In this document: positions 10,733-64,000 of the stretch, in pieces
How the letters are laid out: each line of letters begins with the position of its first letter
Position numbering within the stretch: position 1 is the first letter of the stretch
Assembly: GCA_034003985.1 (NCBI GenBank)
Contig: JAVEXP010000002.1
Location: 208,789-272,788, forward strand
Length of the DNA: 64,000 nucleotides
Source of the DNA: Patescibacteria group bacterium
Lineage (GTDB): Bacteria > Patescibacteriota > Patescibacteriia > Buchananbacterales > UBA6539
Direction: 5' to 3'
Made by a program: the position numbers and the translations under genes
The notes under the pieces: generated by a model
What the model saw: the letters and a program-made list of their open reading frames with translations, nothing else
What the model was told of the DNA's origin: nothing
Database searches by the model: none

Positions 10733-10742
10733 ATTTTAAAAA

Positions 10743-12056
10743 ATGAAAAAAATTTTTAAAAAAGTTTTGGAAATCAAATTACGCTATTTGGCCAAGGTGA
10801 TTTTGGATAAATATCAGCCGCAAATTATTGCTATTACGGGCAGCGTCGGCAAAACTTCAACCAAAGAAGCTGTTTATCAGGTTTTGTCGGCGTCCACTCG
10901 AAAAGTTCGGGCCAATGCCAAAAATTATAATAACGAAATTGGCATCCCGCTTTCAATTATTGGCAGTGAATCGGGCGGTCGTTCTTTGTTTCGCTGGTTA
11001 TCGGTTTTTTTTAAAGCTTGGCGTTTGATATTTTTTCAAGACCAATCATATCCCGAAATTCTTATTTTGGAAATGGGTGCCGATCGTCCGGGTGACCTCC
11101 AATATCTTATCAATTTTGTACCATTGAAGGTGGCGGTGGTAACCTCGGTTGCTGAAGTCCATTTGGAATTTTTTAAAACGATCAACGAAATTGCCAAGGA
11201 AAAAAGCAGCTTGGTCCGAGCCTTGGCCAAAGATGGTTTGGCAATTTTGAATTACGACGATAAATTGGTCAAAGAGATGACCAAATTAGCCAAGGGTAAA
11301 GTTGTAACTTTTGGTCTCCAACCCCAGGCCGATTTGTCAGCTAGTGAAATTTCAGTCAGTCACAATGTTGACTATAAAGATGTGTCTACTATTCAGGGAA
11401 TCAGTTTTAAGCTTAAATATAACGGTAAAACTGTTCCGGTGCTATTACCTAAGGTTTTAGGTCAGCATTTGGTTTATAGCGTCTTGGCAGCCATTGCCGT
11501 CGGAATGGCTTACGAAATGAACCTTCATGACATTATTGAGGCCATTAAAAAATTTGAACCGCCCCGGGGTCGAATGAATATCATTGAAGGCATCAAAAAT
11601 ACTTTGATAATTGATGACAGTTATAACGCTTCACCTTTATCAGTCGGCAAAGCTTTAAACCAGTTGAGTCTGATCAATCTCAATGATTTTCATCGTAAGT
11701 TTGCGGTGCTTGGCGATATGCTGGAACTGGGTTCGCGTACAGAAATGGCCCATCAGGAAATCGGCCAGGCCGCGGCTGGTTATGGTATTGATTATTTAAT
11801 TACCGTTGGTGAAATGTCGCGCGATATTGTCCGTGGCGCACTTGGTGCTGGAATGAGCGAAGACCAATGTTTTAATTTTAAAGATAGCGTTGAAGCCGGA
11901 AAATTTTTGCAGCAAAAGTTAAAGTCCGGCGATTTGGTGTTAGTTAAGGGATCGCAAGGCGTCAGAATGGAAAAAGTGGTCAAGGAAGTAATGGCTCATC
12001 CGGAGTTGGCGCCGGAATTACTGGTTCGTCAAGATAAGAGCTGGGCGGCGAAATAA
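10743..12056 (+). CDS. murF: UDP-N-acetylmuramoyl-tripeptide--D-alanyl-D-alanine ligase MurF
   Basis: Mur ligase P-loop ITGSVGKTSTKE and the MurF-type DDSYNASP motif. Confidence 0.85.
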   Translation: MKKIFKKVLEIKLRYLAKVILDKYQPQIIAITGSVGKTSTKEAVYQVLSASTRKVRANAKNYNNEIGIPLSIIGSESGGRSLFRWLSVFFKAWRLIFFQDQSYPEILILEMGADRPGDLQYLINFVPLKVAVVTSVAEVHLEFFKTINEIAKEKSSLVRALAKDGLAILNYDDKLVKEMTKLAKGKVVTFGLQPQADLSASEISVSHNVDYKDVSTIQGISFKLKYNGKTVPVLLPKVLGQHLVYSVLAAIAVGMAYEMNLHDIIEAIKKFEPPRGRMNIIEGIKNTLIIDDSYNASPLSVGKALNQLSLINLNDFHRKFAVLGDMLELGSRTEMAHQEIGQAAAGYGIDYLITVGEMSRDIVRGALGAGMSEDQCFNFKDSVEAGKFLQQKLKSGDLVLVKGSQGVRMEKVVKEVMAHPELAPELLVRQDKSWAAK

Positions 12057-12086
12057 TTGACAAAAATTGAATAGTTGCTATGCTGA
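12057..12086 (+). promoter_or_regulatory. sigma70-like promoter (TTGACA-N17-TATGCT) followed by a hairpin, upstream of the GC-rich phosphatidyltransferase gene
   Basis: TTGACA at 12057-12062. AAAGACTGCCA/TGGCAGTCTTT hairpin at about 12088-12112. RBS AGGAGGA 7 nt before the ATG at 12151. Confidence 0.5.
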
Positions 12087-12150
12087 AAGACTGCCATGTT
12101 GGCAGTCTTTTGCGGTAAACAACCCATTTCCGATATAGGAGGAGAATTTG

Positions 12151-12807
12151 ATGGTTAAGTTTCTGATCTGCCTGGGTTCGACAGCCGAAAAGCTGATTGA
12201 GCACTCTTTGGAGGGCCTGGCTTCCAAAAAAGAGGAAGTCCTGATTCCTTGGATCAGGAGGTGTTGGCCGCCGATTATTTCGCCCAACCTCTTGACGGCC
12301 GTCCGGTTTGAGATTTCCCTGGTGATTATTCTGTATTTGATCGTCGAGGGAGGTAAAGGCTATCAGGCCAATCCCTGGATCATTAGCGGAGTAATCATCG
12401 CTTGCTTGACCGACCTGATTGACGGTCCGGTGGCTCGCGCCTTGAACATGGAATCGAAGTTAGGCTCCTGGTTTGACAAGGTGGTCGATAAATTCTTGAT
12501 TCTGCCGCTTGGTACGGTGGAATTCTGGCACATCGACCGGCTGTTGGTTATTCTTTCAATTTCCGGGACAGTAGTAGCACTGATTGCTGCTACCTATAAG
12601 CTGCTTCAAGACAAGGAAGATGTTCCGGAAAACATTTTTGGCAAGTTCGGTATGAACTGCTATTGTCTGGGTATTTTTTTGGCCCTTTGGCCGGCTTGCG
12701 AGCTGGTGGCCTGGAAAATCGCCTGGATTGGCTTTGCCTTCGGCTTGGCCAGCATCATCCATAACTTTTGCCGACATTTCGGTTTGTCCGGCCCCTACCG
12801 CCACTGA
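12151..12807 (+). CDS. CDP-alcohol phosphatidyltransferase family protein (GC-rich gene)
   Basis: Signature D-x2-DG-x2-AR...G-x3-D-x3-D ([27 protein letters not shown]). Multi-TM protein. About 55% GC, against about 38% in the flanks. Confidence 0.8.
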
Positions 12808-32026: not shown

Positions 32027-32266
32027 GCTAAACCGGCTTAGTGCCGTTTGTTAGCGTTCTTTACAAGCATCATCTCTGGCTTAAAAAGTGTAAGTTAGGG
32101 GTGTGAATATACATTAAGGTGAGAGAACTTCAACGGAAAAAGGAGGATTGCGTCTGACAAAATTGTGTTGGTTACCCGCAACGGTTGGAGCCGTGGCGGG
32201 TGTTGGGTGTTTGGAAGAAAAGGCAACGGGCTTTGGCCCAAATCGACGAAAAGGAGATTTCCACCA

Positions 32267-35200
32267 ATGCGTACGAGTGCATCGATTTTCGCAGTAGTTT
32301 TGTTGGCGGTTTTCATCGTGGGCTGTCCCCCGATCGAAAACCCGCCGCCGGTTCTTGACCTGCGTGCCAACCTCGACGGCCGCTTCGTGCAGGCGTTTGC
32401 CGCCAATGACGACGCCGGCGTTGTGAGCTTCGAGCTGATGCGCAAGAACGAAGACGGAGACTGGTTCCCCGTCTGGAATGCCAACGGCGTCCAGCAAGTG
32501 GCTCATACCCAAAGCTGGGGCGTTCACGAGAGCGTCACGGTCGAAGAGGTGAGTCGCGAGTATCTTGGTAGTCCGGTGTTTTTCTACAGCGGTTGGTACT
32601 ACTGGTCTTCGGGCGGGGAATATCATCCCATCCCGTTTGCCGCCGACTTGTTTCGGTTGCTCAACGCCAGTCGGACCGGAACCGTGGAAACGCGGACGAT
32701 CGACATCGTCCATTCGACCGGTGCCTACCTCGCGGCTCAGTTCGAGCTGGATCGCGAAGGATGGTATGCCGTTCGGGCTTCCGGTCTGACTACGGACAAT
32801 CAACCGTTCGCTTCGGCTCAATTCGAGGAAGTCGGGTACTTCAAAGGTATTGATGGACCCGACGACCCCGGTGACCCCAATAAGCCCATGGCAACCTTCC
32901 ACGATCTGTTCGTTTCTCCTTGGAAGACGGTGAACGGGTATCTGGATGGGTATGTCAGCATCAGTAACGGCGGGGTGCCAACCGACTACTTCTTGGCGTG
33001 CGATATCGCCGTCGAGGGAGTTTGGCATCAGAAGCCGGGCTGGGGCGAGGAAGGGCGAGTGAGTATTGCTCACGACGGCTATTTCTTTGTCGACTTTACC
33101 AAGGCCGGCAATGACCACGAGGCAACGAGTTTTTGGTTGCGCGTGGTGCCGCGTAGCGTCACCGACATCCCGAATTGCGGTTTGGATCCGTCCTTGTGTC
33201 TGGTTCGGCCCGAAATTCCCGAGGCCATTGGTAGTATTCTCGTTCTTCGTCCGCCGATCAGCAATGATGACGACGGGAGCGGGGAAGTGACGATTGGCTT
33301 CCGGGATATTCCCGCTTATCTGAGTACCGACGGTACCCTGACGGGAATGGTCACGGCCGATAACCTCGCCGATTTGGCAGTGTTGGTGTACATTCATGTC
33401 GATGGCGTGGCCTGGCAGAAGCCGGACTGCGGAGTGCTGATTCCGATTGCTGCCGATGGCTCCTGGTCGACGAATGTCTATCAGGTTGCCGGTGATGAGC
33501 TCGCGACGCATATCAGCGCGTTTGCGGTGCCATTGGGTACGGTGGCGCCGTGCGTCATCTATCCCCAAGCCAAGGCCGTCCAGGCTGCGGCAGTGTGTGT
33601 GGATGGCATCTGCATCGATGGCGCTAAGGCCGGAGTGATCGTTAACCGGGTTCCGAATTTCAACCTGGTACGCATTCCGTCTTACGGCGACCTCGACGGT
33701 ACTACCATCGGTATGGTCAGCGCGCCCGATCCCACTCAGTGGCAAATCGGCGTGTACGCTGGCGGCATTCCCGGAGAAAGCGGCTGGGTCATCAAGCCCG
33801 GTTTTGCGCCCGGTGATGCCATCGTGCCGAGCCTCAGCGGTAGTTGGGTTACCGACCTGGTTACGGGTGGCGACGACCATTTGGCCAGCCAGTACTGGTT
33901 CATGCTGTTTCCGGTTGGAACAGCAATGCCCCAGTGCGGCCAGATTGGTTGTCCCAACCTCACAGACGCGCTCGCGCTGTCGGTTGCCGACATCTGGATC
34001 AATCGGCAGCCTGGAGCTGATACGATTGCTCCGGCTGTGACCCTACTTGGCGTCAATCCCATGGTGCTTGAAGTCGGTGCGACCTTCGTCGATCCCGGCG
34101 CGACAGCGACGGATAATATCGACGGCGATCTGACCTCGAGTATCGTCGTGACCGGCACGGTCAACACCAATGCCGTCGGTAGCTACTCGTTGACCTACAG
34201 CGCCACCGACAGCAGCGGCAACACAGGTTCCGCTGTCCGGACGGTGAATGTGGTCGATACTACGGCTCCGGTGGTAACGGTTCTGGGCAGTAATCCCATG
34301 TCCGTGGCCCTCAACAGCCAGTTCGTCGATCCCGGCGCGACAGCGACGGATAATATCGACGGCGATCTGACCTCGAGTATCGTCGTGACCGGCACGGTCG
34401 ATACCGGCGTTGCGGGCAGCTACTCGTTGACCTACAGCGCCACCGACAGCAGCGGCAACACAGGTTCCGCTGTCCGGACGGTGATCGTCAGCGGCGACAT
34501 CGAACCCCCAGTCATCACGATTCTGGGGACGAATCCGTTGACCCTCGAGGTCCTCTCGGGCGGTTATTCGGATGCCGGCGCCACCGCGAGTGACAATGTT
34601 GACGGCGACATCAGCGGTTTGATTCAGACGGTATCGACCGTCAACATGACGCTGGTGGGCAATTACATCGTCACCTACACTGTCACCGACAGTAGTGGCA
34701 ACACCGCCACCGCAGTCCGCAATGTCAGTGTGGTGGACACGACGGATCCGGTAATCGGTACGCCGATTGCCGACATCGTGTTGTACCAGCACCAGTCGTA
34801 TCAGGTGGACTTGGCCAATCACGGTTATGACGCATACGACGCGTCGGCTTCGTGGGCGGCCACCGGTTATGATCCGGAGTTGATTGAGGTCGGTATTACC
34901 GCCGGCACCTTGCTGGTGGTGGACGCCAACCTCAAACTGGGCACGACCACCATGACATTGACCATCACCGACTCCTCGGGCAACCAGGCGAGTCAGGATG
35001 TTGTCGTCACGGTCTCGAGTTGTGGTGACAATCTGATCAACATCGATGTGCTCCCCGGAGACATCGATAGCTACACCATCGCGGGGACGATTTGCGGCAG
35101 CCTTGATCCCGCCGCCCACCGCATCGTGGTGTATGTGATGAAACAGATTGGCGACTACGACTTCGTCTTCGTCAAGCCCGGGTACGACGCTTTGGCCTAT

Positions 35201-35416
35201 ACGCCGATTGCGTCCAATGGCTACTGGTCGACATCCGTTAACCCGGATAGCGATTGGAAGCAGATCAAGGTGGTGTTGGTTGAAGAGGGGACGAATGTGC
35301 CCATGTGCGGTGCCAATCCGCCGACCTGCTTCGAGGAATTTCCGGACTTCGAGAGCAATCCGGCAGCTTGGCCCGGGGTACTGAGTACCCATACGGTCAT
35401 CAACCCGACTCCGTAA
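32267..35416 (+). CDS. Large secreted lipoprotein with tandem Ig-like/DUF5011 (HYR-like) domains. GC-rich (about 60%).
   Basis: Lipoprotein signal MRTSASIFAVVLLAVFIVGC. At least three repeats of ...PGATATDNIDGDLTSSIVVTGTV...YSLTYSATDSSGNTGSAVRTV. The ORF-track start 32165 lies upstream of the RBS, so the ATG at 32267 is preferred. Confidence 0.75.
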   Translation: MRTSASIFAVVLLAVFIVGCPPIENPPPVLDLRANLDGRFVQAFAANDDAGVVSFELMRKNEDGDWFPVWNANGVQQVAHTQSWGVHESVTVEEVSREYLGSPVFFYSGWYYWSSGGEYHPIPFAADLFRLLNASRTGTVETRTIDIVHSTGAYLAAQFELDREGWYAVRASGLTTDNQPFASAQFEEVGYFKGIDGPDDPGDPNKPMATFHDLFVSPWKTVNGYLDGYVSISNGGVPTDYFLACDIAVEGVWHQKPGWGEEGRVSIAHDGYFFVDFTKAGNDHEATSFWLRVVPRSVTDIPNCGLDPSLCLVRPEIPEAIGSILVLRPPISNDDDGSGEVTIGFRDIPAYLSTDGTLTGMVTADNLADLAVLVYIHVDGVAWQKPDCGVLIPIAADGSWSTNVYQVAGDELATHISAFAVPLGTVAPCVIYPQAKAVQAAAVCVDGICIDGAKAGVIVNRVPNFNLVRIPSYGDLDGTTIGMVSAPDPTQWQIGVYAGGIPGESGWVIKPGFAPGDAIVPSLSGSWVTDLVTGGDDHLASQYWFMLFPVGTAMPQCGQIGCPNLTDALALSVADIWINRQPGADTIAPAVTLLGVNPMVLEVGATFVDPGATATDNIDGDLTSSIVVTGTVNTNAVGSYSLTYSATDSSGNTGSAVRTVNVVDTTAPVVTVLGSNPMSVALNSQFVDPGATATDNIDGDLTSSIVVTGTVDTGVAGSYSLTYSATDSSGNTGSAVRTVIVSGDIEPPVITILGTNPLTLEVLSGGYSDAGATASDNVDGDISGLIQTVSTVNMTLVGNYIVTYTVTDSSGNTATAVRNVSVVDTTDPVIGTPIADIVLYQHQSYQVDLANHGYDAYDASASWAATGYDPELIEVGITAGTLLVVDANLKLGTTTMTLTITDSSGNQASQDVVVTVSSCGDNLINIDVLPGDIDSYTIAGTICGSLDPAAHRIVVYVMKQIGDYDFVFVKPGYDALAYTPIASNGYWSTSVNPDSDWKQIKVVLVEEGTNVPMCGANPPTCFEEFPDFESNPAAWPGVLSTHTVINPTP
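34086..34500 (+). repeat. Intragenic near-identical tandem duplication (about 237-bp period, 2 copies) encoding duplicated Ig-like domains
   Basis: TTCGTCGATCCCGGCGCGACAGCGACGGATAATATCGACGGCGATCTGACCTCGAGTATCGTCGTGACCGGCACGGTC occurs at about 34086 and about 34323. GCTACTCGTTGACCTACAGCGCCACCGACAGCAGCGGCAACACAGGTTCCGCTGTCCGGACGGTGA occurs at about 34183 and about 34420. Confidence 0.85.
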
Positions 35417-49193: not shown

Positions 49194-49268
49194 GGCCCGT
49201 TCGTCTAGTGGTTAGGACGCCAGGTTCTCATCCTGGTAACGGGGGTTCGATTCCCCCACGGGCTGCCA
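49194..49268 (+). tRNA. tRNA-Glu (anticodon CUC), CCA encoded
   Basis: Manual fold: acceptor GGCCCGT/ACGGGCT (G1-U72), D-arm GTCT/GGAC with AGTGGTTA loop, anticodon stem CCAGG/CCTGG, loop TTCTCAT, T-arm GGGGG-TTCGATT-CCCCC, discriminator G, CCA. Confidence 0.85.
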
Positions 49269-50855
49269 CCGTGCATAAATCGAGGTTAACGCCTCGGTTT
49301 TTGCGTAGGTTGATTGTTTTTCTTTTGGTTCTAACCTTTGATATTCTTTTTCTAACTCTGGATACTTATTTTCAATAATTTGAAACCATTCATAAAGGTT
49401 CACATCTAATTGGCAGTTAAGCAGTTTGTGGTCTTTGCCCAAGGTAACTAATATCTTTCGCTTAGTTGCACAATCTCCCGTGCTAAACCTTGTTCGGGCA
49501 TATGTTGCAAAATCAAAAGTTTCTCGAGTCAGTTCTAACCAATCTTGGCTTTTTTTCTCAAGACTGTTTATTTCACTTTTAAGCTGTAAGATTTCTTCAA
49601 CAAGTTCGCTTTTACTTTTTTTGTATTCATCTTCATCTAGGACTTGGCGAATAAGGAGTTTTTTTAGATTTTCAAGCTGTAATTCCTTGTCCTTTAGCTT
49701 CCGTACCAACTTCTGTTCTTTTTTGAATTGATTATTAACTTCAAGCTCTTGCTCCTCATCTAGTACGTCAAGCGCCCAATTTAAAAATTTTGGCATTATG
49801 GTAATTTTTCCCAACACTGAGTTTACTTGCTCATCAAGCTTTTCTTGCCTAACTGTTTTTCTTTGGGAACAATCAACACCCCTTTTTCTACGAGTGCAAT
49901 TGTAGTAATCATAGTTTTGAAGTTGGTTGGTCTCTTTAATCAACTTAGTCTTTCGTTGAGCTACAATACTGCAACCGCACTCCGCACACTCCATTAAGCC
50001 AGAATAGGGGAAGTTAAACTTTCGTCGTATCTTTTTTGTTGGTCTGTTAAGTAATGCCTGAACTCTATAATACTCATCTAAGCTGATCATTGGTTCATGG
50101 CTTCCCGGATATTCCTCGCCGTTGTAAGTTAATGCTCCCGCATAGAATTTGTTTTTGAAAATCAGGTATAGGCCGCTTTGAGTTAAGGGACGACCGCCTG
50201 TATTTCTTCTTTTAAGAGTGGTAAAACTCCATTCGTTATTAAGCTTGTCTAGAATCTCAGCAACAGAGTAGTTTCCAGTTAACATCAACTTCCAGCACTG
50301 CTGTATTAGCTTGAAGCGTTTTTCATCTTTAACGATAGTATGATTTATGAGATCATTTTTGTAGCCAGAAGGCGGTACTCCTGGCCGCCAACCTTTTTCA
50401 ACTTTACTCCTCATGCCTCGTTTTACATGTTTACTAAGATCTCTGACATATTGATTGGCCATTCCACCTTCAACGCTTAGAAGTAGAGCATTATCATCAG
50501 GTGTATGCTTTTTATCAATGGTCTGTATCTCCTGGATTATGCCGTTTTGCAACAGCCACATGATTTGTCCACTATCAACTGTATTTCTTGATAGGCGGTT
50601 GAAATGCCAACAGAGAATAGCGTCTGCTTTGCCCTCATCAAGCATTTTAAGCATTTCGGTGAAAACAGGGCGTTGATAAGGTGCTTTGGCTGATTTAGAT
50701 TCTTTTAGAATCTTGGTAATTTTCAACCCTTGAATATCAGCCAATCGTTTAAGCTCCTTAATTTGGTCATCAATGGACTGAACTTGTCTTTCTCGTCCTT
50801 CGCTTGATTTTCGAGCGTAAAGGACATACCTCAATTGTTTTTTATTAGTTTCCAT
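49212..50855 (-). mobile_element. Large serine recombinase (integrase). Its 3' end overlaps the tRNA-Glu 3' end.
   Basis: Resolvase catalytic domain YVLYARKSSEGRERQVQSIDDQ (nucleophile Ser). Recombinase domain. Zn-ribbon CAECGCS...YYNCTRRKRGVDC. Long C-terminal coiled coil. Confidence 0.85.
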
Positions 50856-53979: not shown

Positions 53980-54057
53980 AAGCTATAAACTTTTATTTAG
54001 TTAACACAAAGCCCCACGCTAGCTAGGCCGAAGCCACATGCCCGTTTCCAGACATGA

Positions 54058-54105
54058 CCCAAGATGAGTCGCTGAACGTGGGGTTCAGTATCATCTTGGG
54101 TTTTT
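54058..54105 (+). other. Nested perfect hairpin (10-bp outer stem plus inner 6-bp stem) followed by a T-run, in the divergent promoter region
   Basis: CCCAAGATGA-gtcg-CTGAAC-gtgggg-GTTCAG-ta-TCATCTTGGG-TTTTT. Confidence 0.6.
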
Positions 54106-54247
54106 AGACCATGCCCTGCGGAGCAGAGTTTAGGTCATCTAGATTGTAGGTTAATAATAAAATATTTGCTTAACTTTGTAAATATTTACTTGATTTTTTG
54201 TCCAGAATGTGTAAAAATTATGTTACTAATTTTTAACCCATAATTCT

Positions 54248-54865
54248 ATGTCAAAAGAAAATCAAAAAGATGATCTTGAGGCTGTTAGACTTATTGCTGA
54301 GACCCTTGAGAATTTTTCAGATCAAGAACGTGAAAGGATAATTCGTTGGTCACTAGAAAAACTGGGGACAGAAGCAGGAAGCTTCCCCTCTGTGAAAACT
54401 AGCCCATCTGTGCAAACTGGTGTAGCCGAAATCGTTAATCAAAGTGCCTCGGCAAGTACAAACACAGATATCTTAAAACCAAAAGATATAAAAAGTTTTG
54501 TTGACAGTAAAGATCCAAAAAGTGATAAGGAGTTAGCAGCAGTGGTAGCTTTTTATTACGCGTTTGAAATGCCTGATGAGGAAAAGAAAGAGTCGATTGG
54601 ATCTAAAGATCTAACTGAAGCATGTCGTCTAGCTCAACGTAGACGGCCAAAAGACCCTGCCCAGACTTTAAGAAATTCTGCATATGCTGGTTATCTTGAT
54701 AATATTGAAAGAGGTCAGTATAAGATTAATTCCGTCGGTGAAAACTTGGTGGCCATGATTTTACCAGGCAAGGTTGAATCAACTCAGTTAAAAAACAAAA
54801 AGCCTCGAACAAACACGAAGAAAACACAATCGAAAAGAACTAAAAAATCTTCCAAGCGAAAATAA
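54248..54865 (+). CDS. Hypothetical protein, gene 1 of a three-gene operon (205 aa; Lys/Arg-rich C-terminal tail)
   Basis: ORF with a C-terminal KNKKPRTNTKKTQSKRTKKSSKRK tail (nucleic-acid-binding-like). 7-nt gap to the next gene. Confidence 0.5.
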   Translation: MSKENQKDDLEAVRLIAETLENFSDQERERIIRWSLEKLGTEAGSFPSVKTSPSVQTGVAEIVNQSASASTNTDILKPKDIKSFVDSKDPKSDKELAAVVAFYYAFEMPDEEKKESIGSKDLTEACRLAQRRRPKDPAQTLRNSAYAGYLDNIERGQYKINSVGENLVAMILPGKVESTQLKNKKPRTNTKKTQSKRTKKSSKRK

Positions 54866-54871
54866 AGCTTT

Positions 54872-55687
54872 ATGGATTCACGCATAGATTCTATCAATAG
54901 CGCCATAGAGGAGATAACAAGACTAGCAAAATACCTAAAAGGGAGAAAAACCGTCCAAGTAAAAACTTTGGAAGAGAAACAGGTAATTGCTTCTACGGTC
55001 TACGCATGGATAAATAAACATAGAAAACTTTTTACTCAATCTTCTGGCAGTGCTGATTTAGATAACATAGATCAACTTTATCTATCGGTTTTGAGTCTCT
55101 CTGAACAAAGTGCTACTAGAAAAAAATATAGTGATATATTAAAGCTTCTAAAAAAAGCCTTAATAAGTTTTAGAGAACACATAATATCAAATGTCATAGT
55201 CAATCCTGTATATACCATGCCGGAGTTTTCAAGCTTGGTTGAAGATCAAAAAATGCAATCCATTCTTAAAAAAAGGTGGGACGAAATAAATAGATGTCTA
55301 CAAAATGAAGCATCACTTTCTGCAACCATAATGATGGGGGGAACACTAGAAGCCCTTCTATTGGCAAGGATTAACAAGCTGTCAAACAAAGACCCTATCT
55401 TTAAGTTAAAATCTACTCCGAAAGATGGTAAGACCAAAAAAGCTAAAAATTTATCGGATTGGACTCTCAATGATTATATTAATGTTTGTGCAGAGATGGG
55501 ATGGATAACAGAGCCAGCAAGACAAGTTAGCCAGATATTAAGAGACTATAGAAATATTATACATCCAGAAAAAGAGTACAGAAGTGGTATTAATATAGAC
55601 ACAAGTGATGCGCAGCTCTTTTATCAAATATTCTCACAGTTAACAGAGCAAATAGTTAAGACAAAAAATGATGGAATTACAAATTGA
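54872..55687 (+). CDS. Hypothetical protein with C-terminal HEPN-like domain (Rx4-6H motif), gene 2 of the operon
   Basis: C-terminal all-alpha region ...ATIMMGGTLEALLLARINKLS...LSDWTLNDYINVCAEMGWITEPARQVSQILRDYRNIIHPEKE. The RDYRNIIH / R-N-x-x-H motif is typical of HEPN/DUF4145-type RNases. Confidence 0.5.
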   Translation: MDSRIDSINSAIEEITRLAKYLKGRKTVQVKTLEEKQVIASTVYAWINKHRKLFTQSSGSADLDNIDQLYLSVLSLSEQSATRKKYSDILKLLKKALISFREHIISNVIVNPVYTMPEFSSLVEDQKMQSILKKRWDEINRCLQNEASLSATIMMGGTLEALLLARINKLSNKDPIFKLKSTPKDGKTKKAKNLSDWTLNDYINVCAEMGWITEPARQVSQILRDYRNIIHPEKEYRSGINIDTSDAQLFYQIFSQLTEQIVKTKNDGITN

Positions 55688-56411
55688 AGAAGTTCGGGAA
55701 TACTTAAATAAGTTATCAGGAGGTATTAACAACCACAAAGATGAGCTGTTCTCTTTGCACAAGGAAAACTCTTTTAATAAAAGATTTTCCATTGTTCTTA
55801 GTTCTTTCGAGGATCTTAGTGCTGTAGTAGATCAATTGAGCTTGAATATAAAGGAGTCGGTAGAAGTTGAAAAAGAAATACAGAGAAGGTGGTATAGAGA
55901 AGATAAAGACAAAATAACAAGTGAAGGCCAAAAACTCAGAAAAAAAGCACACAAATTAACGCTGCACTGTCAAAAGGACTTTAAATCTCTCTACATATTT
56001 TCAAAAATTTTTCTTGATAAATACACTAAACTATTTTCTTTCATTACTAAGTGGCGTGGCGTCGGGAATAGTTCAATAACATCATTTTTCAATGATTTGC
56101 TCAAATATGAAGGAGAAAAAAAAGAAATTATTCAATTCAAAGCAGAGTGCTTAAACGGTCTTAAGTCAGTAAACATTTTTTTGACTCAATATCGTGATAA
56201 ATTTGTTGTTCATCATGAAATTAATCAAGTTAACGGTCCATGGTTTATAAACTCAATGAATGGAGATATTAGATTTGTAAACGAAGGCGGTAGACCATCT
56301 GTTACTCCTGTGGAGTTATTGTTCGTAGTAAAAAATTATGTTTCAATTAGCACGAGTTACGTGACGAATTATTGGATTAATGAGTTAAAGGATATAAGTC
56401 CAGGGGTATAA
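55668..56411 (+). CDS. Hypothetical protein, gene 3 of the operon (247 aa); overlaps gene 2 by 20 nt
   Basis: Coupled ORF with no recognisable motif. Confidence 0.45.
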   Translation: MMELQIEEVREYLNKLSGGINNHKDELFSLHKENSFNKRFSIVLSSFEDLSAVVDQLSLNIKESVEVEKEIQRRWYREDKDKITSEGQKLRKKAHKLTLHCQKDFKSLYIFSKIFLDKYTKLFSFITKWRGVGNSSITSFFNDLLKYEGEKKEIIQFKAECLNGLKSVNIFLTQYRDKFVVHHEINQVNGPWFINSMNGDIRFVNEGGRPSVTPVELLFVVKNYVSISTSYVTNYWINELKDISPGV

Positions 56412-56599
56412 ATTTATATAATTGTGGTGTCTAAAAATCTAAACTCCACTTTTTGAGATTACACTTCTAACCAACGAAACCGTGCTCTGCCAGATGAAAA
56501 ATAGTACCAAGCGACCCGAGTGGGCTATTTTAGCGAAATTTTTTTGAGTCATTTTTTAGATTTATCCACAACCCAATAAGGAATAGAACTAAATTATTT

Positions 56600-57454
56600 A
56601 TGTCTTTTGTAAATACACTGCCATACATAAGTAATCCAATTGAAGAATTTAAGGATTATCGTTTTGTAGATTGGGAATCCGGAATATATCCGACATTTAA
56701 AGCCGGCACAGATCCTGAAGAAATACATTTCTTCACTGATTTAATCCAGTCTCAAGGATTACGGAAAATACTTGACCTCGGCGTTGGCGGAGGAGTTGAA
56801 TTGGCAGATATCTGTAAGAATTTAAAGAAATATAATTATCCCGTTGAGTCGATAGAAGCAAATGAGGTTGATGCTACATTCATTCAATTAGCTCATAAGC
56901 ACTTCCAATCTCAAGAATTAAAAATTTTAATCCATAAGGCTAATTGGCTTGACCTTCCAAAAGCTGAGCCACCATACACTCATAACTTTGACTTTGCATT
57001 TTTAACAGGCAATTCATTGACCTATATAGGTGGTGGAACTCGTGAATATACTAAAAGAGCGCAACAATCGGTAGTAAGTAAATTCTCGGGGATGATTGAT
57101 AAGGGTGGCTACTTGTTTATTGATTCTCGTAATTACGATTATATTTATTCTTTGATGAACTTGTCGCGAGAAGAAATCTTTGAAAATTTCACGTTCCCTT
57201 ACAGTATTTATTACCATGGTTTTCAAGAAAAGATTTTGGTTTTTCCTGCCTATATAAGTGACACAGTTGTTGTTTTGCATTATTATGATAAAGAGAAAAG
57301 AGTCTGGAGCAAGCTTGATCTGTACCCGATATACCAGAAAGACATGTTGGATATTTTAAGTAAAGATTTTGAGGTTGAAAAAGTTATCTACGACTTTGGT
57401 AAGGGTTCAAAAGACAAGAGTTTATTCGTTCAGTACTTAGTAAGGAGAAAGTAA
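56600..57454 (+). CDS. Class I SAM-dependent methyltransferase (orphan, island cargo)
   Basis: Motif I ILDLGVGGGVELADI. Acidic motif II EANEVD. FDFAFLTGNSLTYI post-II/motif IV region. Confidence 0.65.
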   Translation: MSFVNTLPYISNPIEEFKDYRFVDWESGIYPTFKAGTDPEEIHFFTDLIQSQGLRKILDLGVGGGVELADICKNLKKYNYPVESIEANEVDATFIQLAHKHFQSQELKILIHKANWLDLPKAEPPYTHNFDFAFLTGNSLTYIGGGTREYTKRAQQSVVSKFSGMIDKGGYLFIDSRNYDYIYSLMNLSREEIFENFTFPYSIYYHGFQEKILVFPAYISDTVVVLHYYDKEKRVWSKLDLYPIYQKDMLDILSKDFEVEKVIYDFGKGSKDKSLFVQYLVRRK

Positions 57455-57499: not shown

Positions 57500-57524
57500 G
57501 GTTCGATTCCTAAAAAGGCTGCCA
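57500..57524 (+). repeat. Degenerate direct repeat of the tRNA-Glu 3' end (T-loop plus acceptor; 19/25 identical, same spacing). Putative att remnant separating two tandem islands.
   Basis: GGTTCGATTCC-taaaaa-GGCTGCCA versus the tRNA's GGTTCGATTCC-cccacg-GGCTGCCA (49244-49268). Confidence 0.6.
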
Positions 57525-57614: not shown

Positions 57615-58937
57615 TTAATTCCCCAATAATCTGATTTTTTTGTTGGTGTAAATAAGCTTACTTTTCAGTAGCGACAACAGTTCGCGTTTTTCCGAGATAT
57701 TGCCGTTTTGTATTAAATATTTGGCGTACGCTCGTATGTCAATTTTCTTTGTTTCAATTTTATTATGACTTCCGCCAAGTACGGAAGTCTGCAGATTGTT
57801 TAATCTTCTTACCTCGTCTTCAAACTTTCCTTGAACTCCAAGTTGATCTATCTCAACCTTATCAATTGTTTTTGCCAATTCGTTTATGAGCGATTCCTCC
57901 CGAATATAAGTGTTTTTACATTCGGGATTTTTGGCTCTGGTGCAACCGTAGTAAATATATTTGGCGGTTGTCCCGTCAGTCAATTTTTTGAATTTTTCTT
58001 GTCCTGTGATACTGGATCCGCACAGGCCACAAACCATGAGTTTGGTAAAGGCAAATTCTTTGTTTTTGGCGCCGCAGGTTGCTTCAATGGTTTTGATGTT
58101 GACTTGCGCCTGATCGAAAAGTTTTTGAGTGATAATCGGTTTATGTTTGCCCTGATACCACTTGCCGCTGTTTTTTGGGTATTCAAACATGCCGTAGTAG
58201 AACGGGTTTCTCAATAGATTATATATTCCACTCAGTGCCAGTGTTTTTTGACCTCTGGTTTTGAAATTAAGGTCAAACTTCAACCAGTTGTATATTTTTC
58301 TACCACTCCAGCGCTCATTGGCAACTTTTTCAAATATCTGCTTGATTATCGGTGCGCGCAGGGGATCAACGATGATCTGGCACTTCTTATCCATTTGATT
58401 TTGGTTCAGATAGCCCAGGGGTGCCATGCCCGGCCACAAACCCATTTCTACCCTCGTTCTCATGCCTCTTTTGACGTTTTCTCCGCGATGATCGTTTTCC
58501 AGTTTGGCGGTACTTCCCAAAATCATCAGCATGAATTTTTCATTTGGGTTATTGGTGAATGTTTGTCCGTGGGTTCTTATTTCCGCCAACAATCCTTGAT
58601 CCATAAGATCGACTATGGCGCCCAAGTCCCCGGCGTTACGACTTAAACGATCCGGAGCCCAAGTGATGATGCCGTTGAATCTGCCGGTTCTAATGTCACC
58701 CAAAAGCTCATTAAAGATTTCCCGCTGTCCCGTGTCCTTGGCCGAGTGACTTTCCCGTTTGATTTCAACAATGTCCAAATTTTCCCGAACGGCAATATCC
58801 AACATTTCCTTAACTTGGGAATCGATTGACAGCACCTGGCGCTCCTCGGATTCCGTTGATTTTCTCGCGTAAAGGCAGTATTTGATTTTTTGTTCCGGCG
58901 TGATTGCGTTTTCCATACAACAACATTGATGACGCAA
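57615..58937 (-). mobile_element. Second large serine recombinase (integrase)
   Basis: YCLYARKSTESEERQVLSIDSQ catalytic motif. Recombinase domain. Zn-ribbon CGLCGSS...YYGCTRAKNPEC. The likely start is the Met 7 codons into the ORF. Confidence 0.85.
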
Positions 58938-59085: not shown

Positions 59086-59910
59086 ATGACTAATAAAAAA
59101 ACAAATCTACCAAAGAATAGTATGCCAACATATTTTTTAGATGGTAATTTTGCTTTGTATCATGGCGATGCTCTTGAAGTATTGTCTAAGTTTAAACCTA
59201 ATCAATTTGATATGGTTTTTGCAGATCCGCCATATAATTTATCTAATGGTGGTTTTTCTGTTCATGCAGGAAAAAGAGTTAGCGTGAACAAGGGTGACTG
59301 GGATAGAAGTAAAGGTTTTAAAGATGATTACGAGTTTCATTTTAAATGGTTAGAAGCATGTAAAAGAATATTAAAACCCGGCGGAACCCTTTGGGTTAGT
59401 GGAACCTACCACTCAATTTACCAATGCGGGCATGCAATACAAGCACTCGACTATCATATTTTAAATGATGTTGCTTGGTTTAAACCTAATGCATCACCTA
59501 ATTTAAGCTGTCGTTTTTTTACAGCCAGTCATGAAACTTTGATATGGGCAAGAAAAGAGAAAAAAGCAAAGCATAAGTTTAATTATGACTTAATGAAAAA
59601 TGGTGAGTGGACAGAAGATTTTATAAAAAAACCCAACAAGCAGATGAGAAGTGTTTGGTCTATCAATACCCCCAGACCAGGAGAAAAGAAATTTGGAAAG
59701 CATCCAACACAGAAACCCGTTGATTTACTGGTTAGAATAATTCTAGCAAGTACTGATAGAGGCGACTTAGTTTTGGATCCATTTACAGGATCTTCCACTA
59801 CTGGTTTAGCGGCGTTTTTAAATGATAGAAAGTTTATCGGCATTGACTCAGAGAAAAAATATCTTGATTTATCTGTTAAGAGACTTAAAGATTTAAAGAA
59901 AAATAAATGA
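59086..59910 (+). CDS. Beta-class DNA methyltransferase (DPPY; N6-adenine or N4-cytosine) of a type II R-M system
   Basis: Motif IV FADPPYNL precedes motif I VLDPFTGSSTTGLAA (beta-class order). 274 aa. Confidence 0.85.
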   Translation: MTNKKTNLPKNSMPTYFLDGNFALYHGDALEVLSKFKPNQFDMVFADPPYNLSNGGFSVHAGKRVSVNKGDWDRSKGFKDDYEFHFKWLEACKRILKPGGTLWVSGTYHSIYQCGHAIQALDYHILNDVAWFKPNASPNLSCRFFTASHETLIWARKEKKAKHKFNYDLMKNGEWTEDFIKKPNKQMRSVWSINTPRPGEKKFGKHPTQKPVDLLVRIILASTDRGDLVLDPFTGSSTTGLAAFLNDRKFIGIDSEKKYLDLSVKRLKDLKKNK

Positions 59911-60824
59911 AGTTTTTGGATTTTTACAAAAAGAAGTTGAATTGTCAGAATGAAGGTGATGTCTTTGATTATTTAATTTCTAATTTGAAACCAAGTAACA
60001 CGCTTTGGTCATATTTTGTTAACTGGGACAAAGTTTTTGAAAATACAAAAAAGATTGAGCTGGCCTTAAACACTTTAAATTATTTGGTTGGAAAAGATGA
60101 TTTTGATAAGGAGTTCAAATTCTTACTTAAACAAAATCCTGAAGTCGCTGAAGTTTTACCGGCGCTAGTTGTTAGAGATGGTAATAATAAAAAGAAATTT
60201 AAGGTTTTAGTTGATTTTCAGGGTAAAAAATTAGTATATGAAGATTTTGATTTCACAAAGAAAAAATTTACTGACAATGATATTAATAAATATTTAATAT
60301 TTGTAAAAAATACTAGAATTAAAGACTTAATTATTTCCAAGAAGATTAAAAATCTAGTTGATTATATGATTGGCGTGGAAGCTGGTTTAGATAGTAATGG
60401 GAGAAAGAATCGTGGTGGTCATGCAATGGAGGACATTGTCGAAGTTTTTATTAAAGATTTATGTAAAAGAAAAAAGTTTAGATATTTAAAAGAAGCTAAT
60501 TCGGATAAAATAAAAAAAGAATTTGGTTATGATGTTCCGGTAGATAAATCTTCAAGACGATATGATTTTGTAATTGACAATGGAAAAGAGCCAATAATTT
60601 TTGAAACTAATTTCTACGGTGGTGGCGGATCTAAGTTGAAGTCTACTGCTGGCGAATACAGAAATCTATTTGATGTTTTAGGCGGTAAATTTAAATTTAT
60701 TTGGATTACGGATGGTTCTGGTTGGAGAACGACTTCCAGGCCATTGAATGAAACATTCAGCCATAATGATTATTTGTTTACACTTTCACTACTAGAAAAA
60801 GATATTTTAGATACTCTTATTTAA
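59907..60824 (+). CDS. Putative type II restriction endonuclease (cognate of the DPPY MTase)
   Basis: ATGA translational coupling to the MTase. 305-aa Lys-rich protein. Family not assignable by eye (DpnII/MboI-like is a guess). Confidence 0.5.
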   Translation: MKFLDFYKKKLNCQNEGDVFDYLISNLKPSNTLWSYFVNWDKVFENTKKIELALNTLNYLVGKDDFDKEFKFLLKQNPEVAEVLPALVVRDGNNKKKFKVLVDFQGKKLVYEDFDFTKKKFTDNDINKYLIFVKNTRIKDLIISKKIKNLVDYMIGVEAGLDSNGRKNRGGHAMEDIVEVFIKDLCKRKKFRYLKEANSDKIKKEFGYDVPVDKSSRRYDFVIDNGKEPIIFETNFYGGGGSKLKSTAGEYRNLFDVLGGKFKFIWITDGSGWRTTSRPLNETFSHNDYLFTLSLLEKDILDTLI

Positions 60825-60911: not shown

Positions 60912-63296
60912 ATGAAGATTAGTAGAATAAAAGAAATTAAAAATATTGGCACATTCGCCAAATTTGAGAATGGCGGTTCTTTTGGATTTGAAAAATTAAC
61001 TTTCATATATGGCTTAAATACATACGGAAAGACAACTCTCGCTGATATTTTTCAGTCTTTAAAGCTACACAATCCCTCTTTAATTATAAATCGAAAAACT
61101 ATTCCAGAGATAGCTATTTCTCAGAAGGCAGAAGTATCTGCAAAAGAAACTGATGATGGATCAGAAAAAATTATCAAATTTGAAAATAGCAATTGGATCG
61201 ACAATACAATAGCTAATGATCTAGAGGTTTTTGGAACAGATTTTATTCATAATAATGTATTTACAGGTTTATTGATTGAAAGGAAAAATCGAGAAAATTT
61301 TACGAATTTTATTTTAGGAGATCAGGGGGTTAAATTAGCAGAGAGTATAAAAGAAAAAAAGAAAGTTTTAGGAGATAAAAAAAGAGATCTTCGTAATTAC
61401 ACTCCTGTGTTCGTAAAGAATTTTACCAACAAAGAGATTGAGGAATTTGTTAATTATGATATTAGCAAATTGAATAAAGATGATTTAGATTCAGAATTGA
61501 TTAGGAGTAAATCCCTTTTGCAAAAAGAAAAAGATCGATTAAAGGAGCCAACAAAGATTACCAATATGGATGAGCCAAAATCTTTCGGCTCCATTGATGT
61601 CGATTACATGGACATTATCAACACTATAAATAATTTGTTAGATAAAGATTATCAGGAGATAAAAAAAGAAAGTATAGATATGTTGGACAAGCACATTTCT
61701 AATAATTTTTCTGATGTTGATGGTGCGAAAAATTGGATACAAAGAGGATTAAAATACTGTCTAGATAAAGAAAAAGGAAAGTGTCCATTTTGTAGTCAAA
61801 ATTTAAACAATGTTAAAGATCTGATTGATCTTTACGATTCATATTTTGATAAAGCTTATACAGATTTTATAGACGAAGTTGTTACTGGATTGGACATTAA
61901 TATAAATACATTAAAAAATCGTAATCTAAATAATTATTCAGTAGTTCAATCTGCTTTACTTAAGGCAAATTTATATAAAGATCTAATAATAACTAAAGAG
62001 TATCAATCATATCTACAGAAGCTTATAAGCAATTTATCTCATTTAAAAGAAGATGAATTACAAGAGGAAAAATTCAGAATAGTAGAATCATTTGAAAATA
62101 AAATTTCTAGTAAAATTAAAATTCCATATGAGAAAATTGAAAAACTTGATCCTTCCGATTTCAAGAAAAATTTAGATGAATATAAAATTAATTTAGAGGA
62201 ATGTCGAGATATAGTAGATTCAATACTTACAGCGATTAAGGAATTTAAAAAACAATACAGTAATGTAGTCAGTATCATTGATGCTATAAAAGGTTTGGAA
62301 TCTGATATTCAAGATTTAGAATTTAAAAAAGCTAGATTTGAGCAGAATGATGAGTGTGTAGCCTATAAGAAATTAATCAGCGAAATAGAAAAATTAGAAA
62401 CTGGTGAAGAGGGAATCAAAAATTTGGAAGAAAAATTACAGAAAGATCAAACTGATTTTTTGTCTGACTATTTTGGAAAGATTAATAATTTATTTGTTAA
62501 GTTTGGTAGTAAAAATTTCACTTTAATAAAAGAAGAAGATAGCTCAGGGCACTTACCAGTATATTCGTTGAAAGTGCAATTTCACAATAAACCAATATCA
62601 AATGATAAATTGTGTAATGTTTTTAGTGAGTCAGATAGAAGAGCTTTAGCTTTATCGATATTTTTCGCAAAATTAGAATTGAAAGATAAACAAGAACAAA
62701 ATAAGACAGTCATAATTTTAGATGATCCTATCACAAGTTTTGATGACAACAGGACTACTAATTCAATAAACTATTTTAAAGAGGTTCTTGGTAAAAGTAG
62801 CCAGATGATTATTTTGACACACTATACACATTTTATTAAACGATTTTGTGAAATAACAAAGAAAGATAGTATAACTACGAAGTTTTTAAAGATTGAACAA
62901 AATGAATACTCTAGTTATTTAGAAAATATTACTCGCGAAGAACTAATTATAAACGATTATGAAAAGATATTTATGAAGATTTATAATTTTATCAACAAAA
63001 AAACTTCTGAGAATATAAAAGCAGATTTAAGACCTTTCCTTGAAAATTTATATTTTCCTACAATATTTAGTAAAAAAATACACGATGACAATGTTGACTG
63101 TAGTAACTTAGAGACTATAATTGATGGTTTATTTTCTGACTATGAAGAAGTTAAAAATAAATTTCATGAGTTTAGAAACACTTTGAATCCTGATTCACAT
63201 TTATTCACCTCAAACAATATTGAAGATGTTCGCAATTTTGCAAAGGAAATGTTTGAATATATCTATTCTTTAAGTATAGTAGGCTCGAGAAAGTAA
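60912..63296 (+). CDS. RloC/PrrC-like AAA_13 ABC-ATPase with CxxC zinc hook and C-terminal HEPN-like (anticodon-nuclease-like) domain
   Basis: N-terminus KISRIKEIKNIGTFAKF...LTFIYGLNTYGKTTLADIF (AAA_13 Walker A). Long coiled coil with CPFC. Walker B/D-loop VIILDDPITSFDD, H-loop LTHYTHF. C-terminal FRNTLNPDSH. Confidence 0.65.
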   Translation: MKISRIKEIKNIGTFAKFENGGSFGFEKLTFIYGLNTYGKTTLADIFQSLKLHNPSLIINRKTIPEIAISQKAEVSAKETDDGSEKIIKFENSNWIDNTIANDLEVFGTDFIHNNVFTGLLIERKNRENFTNFILGDQGVKLAESIKEKKKVLGDKKRDLRNYTPVFVKNFTNKEIEEFVNYDISKLNKDDLDSELIRSKSLLQKEKDRLKEPTKITNMDEPKSFGSIDVDYMDIINTINNLLDKDYQEIKKESIDMLDKHISNNFSDVDGAKNWIQRGLKYCLDKEKGKCPFCSQNLNNVKDLIDLYDSYFDKAYTDFIDEVVTGLDININTLKNRNLNNYSVVQSALLKANLYKDLIITKEYQSYLQKLISNLSHLKEDELQEEKFRIVESFENKISSKIKIPYEKIEKLDPSDFKKNLDEYKINLEECRDIVDSILTAIKEFKKQYSNVVSIIDAIKGLESDIQDLEFKKARFEQNDECVAYKKLISEIEKLETGEEGIKNLEEKLQKDQTDFLSDYFGKINNLFVKFGSKNFTLIKEEDSSGHLPVYSLKVQFHNKPISNDKLCNVFSESDRRALALSIFFAKLELKDKQEQNKTVIILDDPITSFDDNRTTNSINYFKEVLGKSSQMIILTHYTHFIKRFCEITKKDSITTKFLKIEQNEYSSYLENITREELIINDYEKIFMKIYNFINKKTSENIKADLRPFLENLYFPTIFSKKIHDDNVDCSNLETIIDGLFSDYEEVKNKFHEFRNTLNPDSHLFTSNNIEDVRNFAKEMFEYIYSLSIVGSRK

Positions 63297-63297
63297 T

Positions 63298-63726
63298 ATG
63301 AAACAAGATAATTTGATTGGAATTGGTAAATATAAAAAAGAAATAACCATTTCTGAATCAAAAGTAATTGAGGCGGTTAGAGATTGGGCATATAAAAATT
63401 GTTGGGGATTAAGGCCTATTATTAAACATGGCCATAACCCCGGTGTTGATTTAGAATTAACAAATGAAAAAACAAGACATAAGTATTTTATTGAATGCAA
63501 GGGTGGATCACATCATGAGGTAAATTTTGTTTATTCCTTAGGTCAAATAATTACCCGCATGAACCGCGTCCCTAAAGGGGTAAATTATGGAATTGCATTG
63601 CCGACGAAATCAGCAGAAATTGCCAGACGAAGGATCCCTAAAGGTTTTGCCACAAGAAATAAGCTGACCATTTTTTCAGTTTCTAACGATGGTAGAGTTC
63701 GGAGATATACACCAAAGGATTTTTGA
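63298..63726 (+). CDS. Small protein with PD-(D/E)xK nuclease-like motif, coupled to the RloC-like gene
   Basis: Start 1 nt after the RloC-like stop. GVDLEL...YFIECKG is compatible with hD...ExK. Confidence 0.45.
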   Translation: MKQDNLIGIGKYKKEITISESKVIEAVRDWAYKNCWGLRPIIKHGHNPGVDLELTNEKTRHKYFIECKGGSHHEVNFVYSLGQIITRMNRVPKGVNYGIALPTKSAEIARRRIPKGFATRNKLTIFSVSNDGRVRRYTPKDF

Positions 63727-63817: not shown

Positions 63818-63842
63818 GATGGACATTTGTCCATTTTTTGGT
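63818..63842 (+). terminator. Rho-independent terminator
   Basis: ATGGACA-TT-TGTCCAT followed by TTTTTT. Confidence 0.6.
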
Positions 63843-64000
63843 TAAAATGTAATTGACAATTAAGTGACCTAAACCCGTCGTTTTCGGCGGGCATGGTCAA
63901 AAATCGTAAGAGACATACAACCCGTCATTCAGGGCGTGAGTTACGTTATGCAGGGAAACTTGCATAGGGGCTTTAAAACCCTCCTGGTGGCGGGCTTTAT

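Follow-up and report, generated by a model that had tools for sequence, protein, structure and literature searches.

RloC was defined by Davidov & Kaufmann (2008, PMC2610378) as a protein combining ATP-binding cassette (ABC) ATPase motifs, a coiled-coil insert bearing a zinc hook (CX2C), and a C-terminal triad, Arg-X3-Glu-X36-52-His, in which a Ser often precedes the His. In the enzyme from Geobacillus kaustophilus (GkaRloC, 804 aa), the hook is at C291 and the triad is R692/E696/H737, with 40 residues (X40) separating the Glu and the His (PMC2610378). Experiments with GkaRloC and with AbaRloC, from Acinetobacter baylyi, established silencing by the zinc hook, activation by DNA ends and ATP hydrolysis, and excision of the wobble nucleotide (PMC3458546, PMC3874168). 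PrrC, from the prr locus of Escherichia coli, also joins an ABC ATPase N-domain to a C-terminal anticodon nuclease (ACNase) domain with an Arg/Glu/His triad, but it has ca. 400 aa, lacks the coiled-coil/zinc-hook insert, is encoded in a type Ic hsd restriction-modification (R-M) locus, and is silenced by EcoprrI and stabilized by dTTP. Here, we analyze an RloC-family gene (positions 60,912–63,296, + strand; 794 aa) in a window of 64,000 nt from contig JAVEXP010000002.1, which belongs to a metagenome-assembled genome of the Patescibacteria, or Candidate Phyla Radiation (CPR); coordinates refer to this window, the whole stretch of DNA analyzed. From sequence, homology and modeling, we consider with good confidence that the gene encodes an anticodon nuclease of the RloC family, the mechanism being extrapolated from the experiments with the Geobacillus and Acinetobacter enzymes.

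The gene is an uninterrupted open reading frame (ORF), with an ATG start and a TAA stop, and contains all the sequence strings quoted in a preliminary description of this region, which had proposed a candidate RloC/PrrC-like nuclease with an AAA_13 ATPase. The deduced protein matched the Pfam model AAA_13 over residues 13–766, with 120.2 bits versus a gathering cutoff of 36, and the PADLOC model PDLC04895 (PDC-S06) over its full length (642 bits, residues 3–786). The NCBIfam scan gave nothing specific and the PHROGs scan no useful match. An identical public protein (P0001) is labeled by NCBI as "AAA family ATPase [Patescibacteria group bacterium]" and by JGI as "wobble nucleotide-excising tRNase", the COG name of RloC (COG4694). 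The protein thus belongs to the already known RloC family, and public pipelines already label it so. The family is catalogued in Pfam, COG and PADLOC, is routinely reported by defence-system finders and, after clustering at 50 % identity, comprises 2,425 clusters at E ≤ 1e-3 and 478 at E ≤ 1e-30. Conservation was evaluated in two alignments, one with 39 relatives (35–63 % identity) and another with 66 sequences, down to 27 % identity, which includes one published RloC. A model built with AlphaFold2 from the family alignment (mean predicted local distance difference test, pLDDT, of 84) consists of a beta/alpha ATPase head and an all-helical C-terminal domain.

The set of ABC-ATPase motifs is complete, with G34–T42, Q71 (Q-loop), S572–R577, D604–D611 and H637 conserved in 59 to 66 of the 66 sequences. 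The Walker A motif, or P-loop, G34-LNTYGKT-T42 (61,011–61,037, +), lies within the string FIYGLNTYGKTT (residues 31–42), and both G39 and K40 are present in 66/66 sequences. Further along the protein, there is an ABC signature-like motif, FSESDRRALAL (residues 571–581; 62,622–62,654, +), where S572 and R577 are found in all 66 sequences and D575 in 64. The Walker B/D-loop, VIILDDPITSFDD (residues 600–612; 62,709–62,747, +), contains five invariant residues (D604, D605, P606, S609 and D611; 66/66), and in the T636-H637-Y638 segment (62,817–62,825, +) the H-loop or switch His, H637, is also invariant (66/66). K40, D604/D605 and H637 are likewise invariant in the alignment of 39 relatives.

The head is split by a helical, coiled-coil insert of about 400 aa (residues ca. 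124–530; 61,281–62,501, +), whose helicity in the AlphaFold2 model is almost continuous and is interrupted around a CPFC motif (residues 291–294; 61,782–61,793, +). The expected conservation of this CxxC was borne out, because C291 and C294 are invariant in both alignments (39/39 and 66/66). Additionally, the family profile over the CPFC region weakly matched crystal structures of the Rad50 zinc hook (6zff, E = 0.06; 1l8d, E = 0.1). CPFC is a candidate Zn site, predicted to act as a zinc hook.

The last ca. 120 aa (residues 672–794; 62,925–63,293, +) constitute a putative anticodon nuclease domain, which is all-alpha in the full-length model and a confidently predicted helical bundle when modeled stand-alone (pLDDT 87.6; predicted template modeling score, pTM, 0.79). 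The Arg-X3-Glu part of the putative ACNase triad corresponds to R707-PFL-E711, in the string DLRPFLE (63,030–63,044, +), with R707 in 66/66 and E711 in 58/66 sequences. A second conserved block, R755-NTL-N759-PD-S762-H763 (63,174–63,200, +), holds the putative triad His with its preceding Ser, as well as a HEPN-like Arg; here, conservation reaches 64/66 for H763, 61/66 for N759 and 49/66 for R755, with an alternative His, H752, in 43/66. In the smaller alignment, R707 is invariant, E711 is present in 37/39 and H763 in 38/39 sequences. R707-X3-E711-X51-S762-H763 is the sole match to the triad in the protein that includes a family-conserved His, and H763 is probably a better candidate than H752 for the catalytic residue, although we flag the ambiguity. 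A conserved Arg/His pair was thus found in the C-terminal domain, as anticipated. The string FRNTLNPDSH (residues 754–763), to which the preliminary description had pointed, supplies the His along with another Arg, R755, which is less conserved, whereas the Arg/Glu pair, which it had not mentioned, lies ca. 50 residues upstream.

A HEPN-like C-terminus had also been proposed. The HEPN superfamily takes in PrrC's and RloC's nuclease domains, and has the motif Rx4-6H (Anantharaman et al., 2013, PMC3710099). The putative nuclease domain resembles HEPN RNases in being small and all-alpha, in having a conserved Arg...His whose Arg is followed by a polar residue, and in its association with R-M operons. 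Nevertheless, the R755-x7-H763 spacing is one residue beyond that of the HEPN motif, and neither Foldseek nor profile searches with the domain matched any HEPN structure, so that the HEPN assignment rests on PMC3710099.

To place the protein relative to described enzymes, we used a gene found by tBLASTn of plasmids in Rhodoferax ferrireducens T118. This gene codes for 770 aa and has a helicase-related gene in its flank, which identifies it as entry 39 in Table S1 of PMC2610378. BLASTP aligned the two proteins end to end (E = 8e-45, residues 3–785 of ours), pairing Walker A, CPFC with CPFC, the signature (SEGDKRTLAF in Rhodoferax), Walker B, the H-loop and R-x3-E (VRLFLE in Rhodoferax). The Rhodoferax RloC also has PDLC04895 as its best PADLOC model (267 bits). 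Since PADLOC uses PDC-S06 to label a bioinformatic candidate to which no mechanism is assigned, and a published RloC matches it best, PDC-S06 appears from these matches to be not a separate system but the RloC family under another name. At the level of sequence, our protein has all three features by which Davidov & Kaufmann (2008) defined RloC, and the architecture proposed for it, in which an ABC head and a coiled coil with a CxxC hook are joined to a nuclease-type domain at the C-terminus, is supported by motifs, models and homology. The comparison with the published positions in GkaRloC is close in length (804 versus 794 aa), in the hook (C291 in both) and in the triad (R692/E696/H737 versus R707/E711/H763), but the spacing between E711 and H763, X51 versus X40, is toward the upper limit of the range published. 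A location on a mobile element and beside R-M genes, as here, is frequent for RloC; one difference is the host, a member of the Patescibacteria.

Of the two families named in the preliminary description, only the first stands. Judging from its sequence, the protein is RloC-type and not PrrC, because its 794 aa include the coiled-coil/hook insert and because the PADLOC PrrC model, PDLC02360, is absent among its matches at E ≤ 0.01. The neighboring R-M system is also of type II, related to DpnII, and not of type Ic as for prrC; nonetheless, relatives of our gene are also found between hsdS and hsdR.

Several observations weigh against the identification as an anticodon nuclease of the RloC family. 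The C-terminal domain had no significant fold or sequence match in the PDB by Foldseek or profile searches. Residue H752 would give the spacing of the Geobacillus enzyme, X40, yet it is the less conserved of the two candidate His. The Rhodoferax RloC, the single published RloC compared and only ca. 22 % identical to our protein, has an Ala at the position of H763, with the string RFHH a few residues earlier, so that H763 is a candidate for the exact catalytic His. In this plasmid protein (L002:5998-8310), either the catalytic His migrated or the nuclease site is degenerate. Moreover, it is by extrapolation from GkaRloC and AbaRloC that our protein would cleave tRNA, excise the wobble nucleotide, bind Zn and be activated by DNA ends, and anti-phage protection by RloC in general is listed as "not tested" (PMC12322248).

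By analogy with those enzymes, a zinc-hook joint within the molecule would keep the resting nuclease silent. This internal switch would open once the ATPase heads had bound DNA ends or double-strand breaks and ATP had then been hydrolyzed, and the C-terminal domain could then cleave anticodon loops of tRNAs, with excision of the wobble nucleotide in the enzymes studied. The ensuing translation stall would abort an infection that had damaged DNA or escaped restriction. The RloC-like protein would in this way add a second, translation-targeting line of defence to the DNA-targeting line of the R-M system.

Such a system lies immediately upstream of the gene. As had been noted from the sequence, it comprises a type II beta-class (DPPY) N6/N4 DNA methyltransferase (MTase; 59,086–59,910, +) and a restriction endonuclease (REase; 59,907–60,824, +). 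The MTase matched PF01555 (191 bits) over profile positions 2–220 of 221, i.e. in full length, and the PADLOC model MTase_II (325 bits), and the REase, of the DpnII family, matched PF04556 (291 bits), also in full length (profile positions 2–277 of 278), and REase_II of PADLOC. Judging from the family, the system would be specific for GATC. The REase overlaps the stop of the MTase gene by 4 nt and is separated by 87 nt from the RloC-like gene. There is no terminator-like hairpin on the + strand between the MTase gene and position 63,818, which is past the ORF that follows the RloC-like gene; this gives weak evidence for a single transcription unit, and the RloC-like gene is probably co-transcribed with the R-M system. 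GATC was not avoided in a manner indicating long residence of a DpnII system (observed/expected ratio 0.94).

We examined eight loci, including that in the window, using precomputed Pfam calls. An R-M module was directly upstream of the RloC-like gene, and in the same orientation, in seven of the eight, with overlapping reading frames in three. These modules were of type II (DpnII, HinfI, and HpaII with Vsr), type I or type I-like (HsdRMS and two with HsdR/M-S fusions) and type III-like (Mod/Res). A wider scan of species-representative genomes, with crude ORF calls, covered 80 RloC-like loci. The nearest upstream ORF was co-oriented with the RloC-like gene in 50/55 loci and lay at ≤150 nt in 45/55. 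According to Pfam, the direct upstream neighbors (n = 55) included Methylase_S (15), N6_Mtase (8) and Eco57I (6); the second upstream neighbors (n = 53), N6_Mtase (11), C5 MTases (3), and one each of ApaLI, HpaII and EcoRI-methylase; and the direct downstream neighbors (n = 53), about ten HsdR-type proteins. In the type I relatives, the gene order is hsdM-hsdS-[gene]-hsdR, as it is for the original "restriction-linked ORFs" and for prrC. Overall, at least 29/50 loci had an R-M gene among the two genes upstream or as the next gene downstream, as did at least 17/19 within the nearer clade (L013–L037), these raw, uncontrolled counts being lower bounds due to incomplete labeling. R-M genes represent around 1 % of bacterial genes.

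For RloC overall, R-M linkage was found in only 8/72 cases (PMC2610378), as compared with 58–89 % of the loci in the clade of our gene, whatever the type of the R-M system. The preliminary description had taken the type II neighbor as a departure from the classical linkage. The neighbor is indeed of type II, but this is no departure for RloC and is typical of its closest relatives, because Table S1 of PMC2610378 already contains a type II neighbor in Campylobacter jejuni 84-25 and a type IIS neighbor in Petrotoga, and such adjacency is common in the query's own clade. There are also relatives without an R-M neighbor, as in locus L018, Rhodoferax and Yersinia. The genes for DUF2130 proteins also adjoin RloC-like genes, upstream in L004 (L004:5490-6998), L018 and one other locus, and downstream in L005 (L005:9411-10709) and L021; these may be accessory genes that recur in this clade. 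Additionally, the RloC-like genes of close relatives are located in dense defence islands (L009:9499-10686; L010:2990-4168 and 9786-12434; L011:10041-12099), with DarT-Macro (DarTG), TIR-STAND NTPase, GmrSD/HNH type IV and further R-M genes; in L010, a DarTG pair is inside a type I-like R-M operon.

Sensing by the RloC-like protein of the DNA ends produced by the upstream restriction enzyme would explain a linkage that is independent of R-M type. It is conceivable, if rather doubtful, that the clade as a whole works as a generic restriction add-on, in which a Rad50-like head would read DNA ends, the common product of all restriction enzymes, and restriction events or overwhelmed restriction would trigger tRNA cleavage and translational shut-down irrespective of the R-M type. 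The main rival to control of the nuclease by its own DNA-end sensor is a PrrC-like control, whereby the adjacent R-M proteins would associate physically with the nuclease and hold it silent until they are themselves disabled by a phage anti-restriction factor. The tight cis linkage to R-M genes, often between hsdS and hsdR as in prrC, and the frequency of linkage in the nearer clade, far above that of RloC at large, agree with such control. We nevertheless regard it as unlikely: the R-M systems concerned have unrelated mechanisms (type I, DpnII, HinfI, HpaII, ApaLI, Eco57I-like type IIG, and type III), which argues against a conserved silencing interface; the hook cysteines, the internal switch of GkaRloC, are invariant; the PADLOC PrrC model was not matched; and the relatives in L018, Rhodoferax and Yersinia have no R-M neighbor.

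The protein could otherwise be a DNA-directed SMC/Rad50-like ATPase for defence or repair, of the kind of Lamassu LmuB or SbcC, with a C-terminal domain that is regulatory or partner-binding instead of an RNase. Foldseek searches of the PDB, where no RloC or PrrC structure was found, gave as top matches SMC/Rad50 heads with coiled coils, including Mre11-Rad50 (7zr1) and LmuB; PADLOC models for LmuB were weakly matched (E = 1.4e-11, 42 bits); and no similarity to solved nucleases was detectable in the C-terminal domain. The resemblance to Rad50/SbcC is in the ABC head interrupted by a long antiparallel coiled coil that carries a CxxC zinc hook at its apex, but our protein has a much shorter coiled coil and the extra nuclease-type domain, and the ORF list and Pfam calls revealed no gene for an Mre11/SbcD metallophosphoesterase partner in the operon. 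LmuB is similarly an SMC-like ATPase from defence islands, but it has no C-terminal triad domain and its score is 15-fold below that of PDC-S06, which spans the whole protein, and neither LmuA nor LmuC was found by Pfam or PADLOC next to our gene. Together with the family-wide conservation of Arg-X3-Glu...His, on which the ACNase activity of PrrC and GkaRloC depends, these observations make this possibility very unlikely.

It is hardly credible that the effector nuclease of a two-gene system is instead the translationally coupled ORF142 (63,298–63,726, +; 142 aa), in spite of its start 1 nt after the stop codon of the RloC-like gene, the presence of both genes on an independent contig (L001) and a string, GVDLE...FIECKG, with a D...ExK recalling by eye PD-(D/E)xK nucleases, because tBLASTn identified no homolog at ca. 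90 other RloC-like loci, the ORF142 family (68–91 % identity) is found beside unrelated cargo without RloC, and the downstream neighbors of RloC relatives are heterogeneous. For the first two of these reasons, ORF142 was rejected as a conserved partner of RloC and is considered a neighbor. It had no match in Pfam, PADLOC, NCBIfam or PHROG, and its family, unannotated and unusually well conserved, includes ca. 60 clusters, all from Patescibacteria-type sources. The genes adjacent to the homologs (such as L093:5001-5402, L095:5001-5423 and L097:5001-5405) are varied: EcoRI-methylase with GmrSD, D12 MTase with HNH, HsdM with OLD, and serine recombinases. ORF142 may be a conserved component, or a boundary gene, of CPR integrative elements. 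It was not retained as a fixed chromosomal anchor at one tRNA, since the tRNAs vary (Gln, Ala, Glu), nor did a LOOT RNA travel with it, there being none beside three ORF142 homologs.

The RloC-like gene and its R-M system had been placed on an integrative element, and this setting is plausible. The cargo block has at its left end a gene for a large serine recombinase (57,615–58,937, −), with Resolvase, Recombinase and Zn_ribbon_recom domains; a repeat search located next to it a 25 nt copy of the 3′ end of tRNA-Glu (57,500–57,524, +; 80 % identity), likely an attachment (att) scar at the left boundary of the element with the R-M and RloC-like genes; and the GC content falls to 0.26–0.33 across the cargo, versus ca. 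0.40 elsewhere. It is thus reasonable to consider that both are carried by an integrative element at the tRNA-Glu locus. The intact tRNA-Glu(CTC) gene (49,194–49,268) is overlapped by the gene for a second large serine recombinase (49,212–50,855, −). Since each tRNA-Glu 3′-end copy adjoins a large serine recombinase gene, this organization suggests two elements in tandem at the tRNA, E1 (ca. 49.2–57.5 kb) and E2 (starting at 57.5 kb and running past the window end). The occurrence of serine, rather than tyrosine, recombinases at a tRNA site is somewhat unusual. No third tRNA-Glu 3′-end copy that would mark the right end was found in the window within three mismatches, and the right boundary of the RloC-carrying element is probably beyond it.

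Two LOOT RNA motifs (Rfam RF03000; gathering score 46.4), at 54,020–54,136 (−; 71.6 bits) and 63,866–63,982 (+; 71.2 bits), are in opposite orientation, with one per putative tandem element; nevertheless, their mutual identity is only ca. 69 %, and we therefore rejected them as terminal inverted repeats of the element and consider them separate structured-RNA genes. The first element contains four co-oriented ORFs (54,248–57,454, +) that may be uncharacterized defence cargo: three (205, 271 and 247 aa) had no Pfam, PADLOC or PHROG match, and the fourth codes for a 284 aa product similar to S-adenosylmethionine (SAM) methyltransferases, with a weak match to "mad2" of PADLOC (E = 8.6e-8). Outside the elements, a patch of high GC content (0.54–0.60, versus ca. 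0.40 for the genome) at 32,165–35,416 (+) encodes a 1,083 aa surface protein, in which bacterial Ig-like and HYR domains are repeated, and is not an rRNA operon.

For a single gene, recognizing a putative RloC-family abortive-infection nuclease from raw sequence amounts to routine annotation. The value of the analysis is, first, that the RloC family seems to be what PADLOC lists as the uncharacterized candidate PDC-S06 and, second, that the predicted catalytic residues have been located across a large clade, that of the 478 clusters, which reaches the Patescibacteria. Lastly, the frequent linkage to R-M systems in this clade, set against the textbook view of rloC as "rarely" linked to them, provides a hint on how restriction and tRNA cleavage may be coupled.

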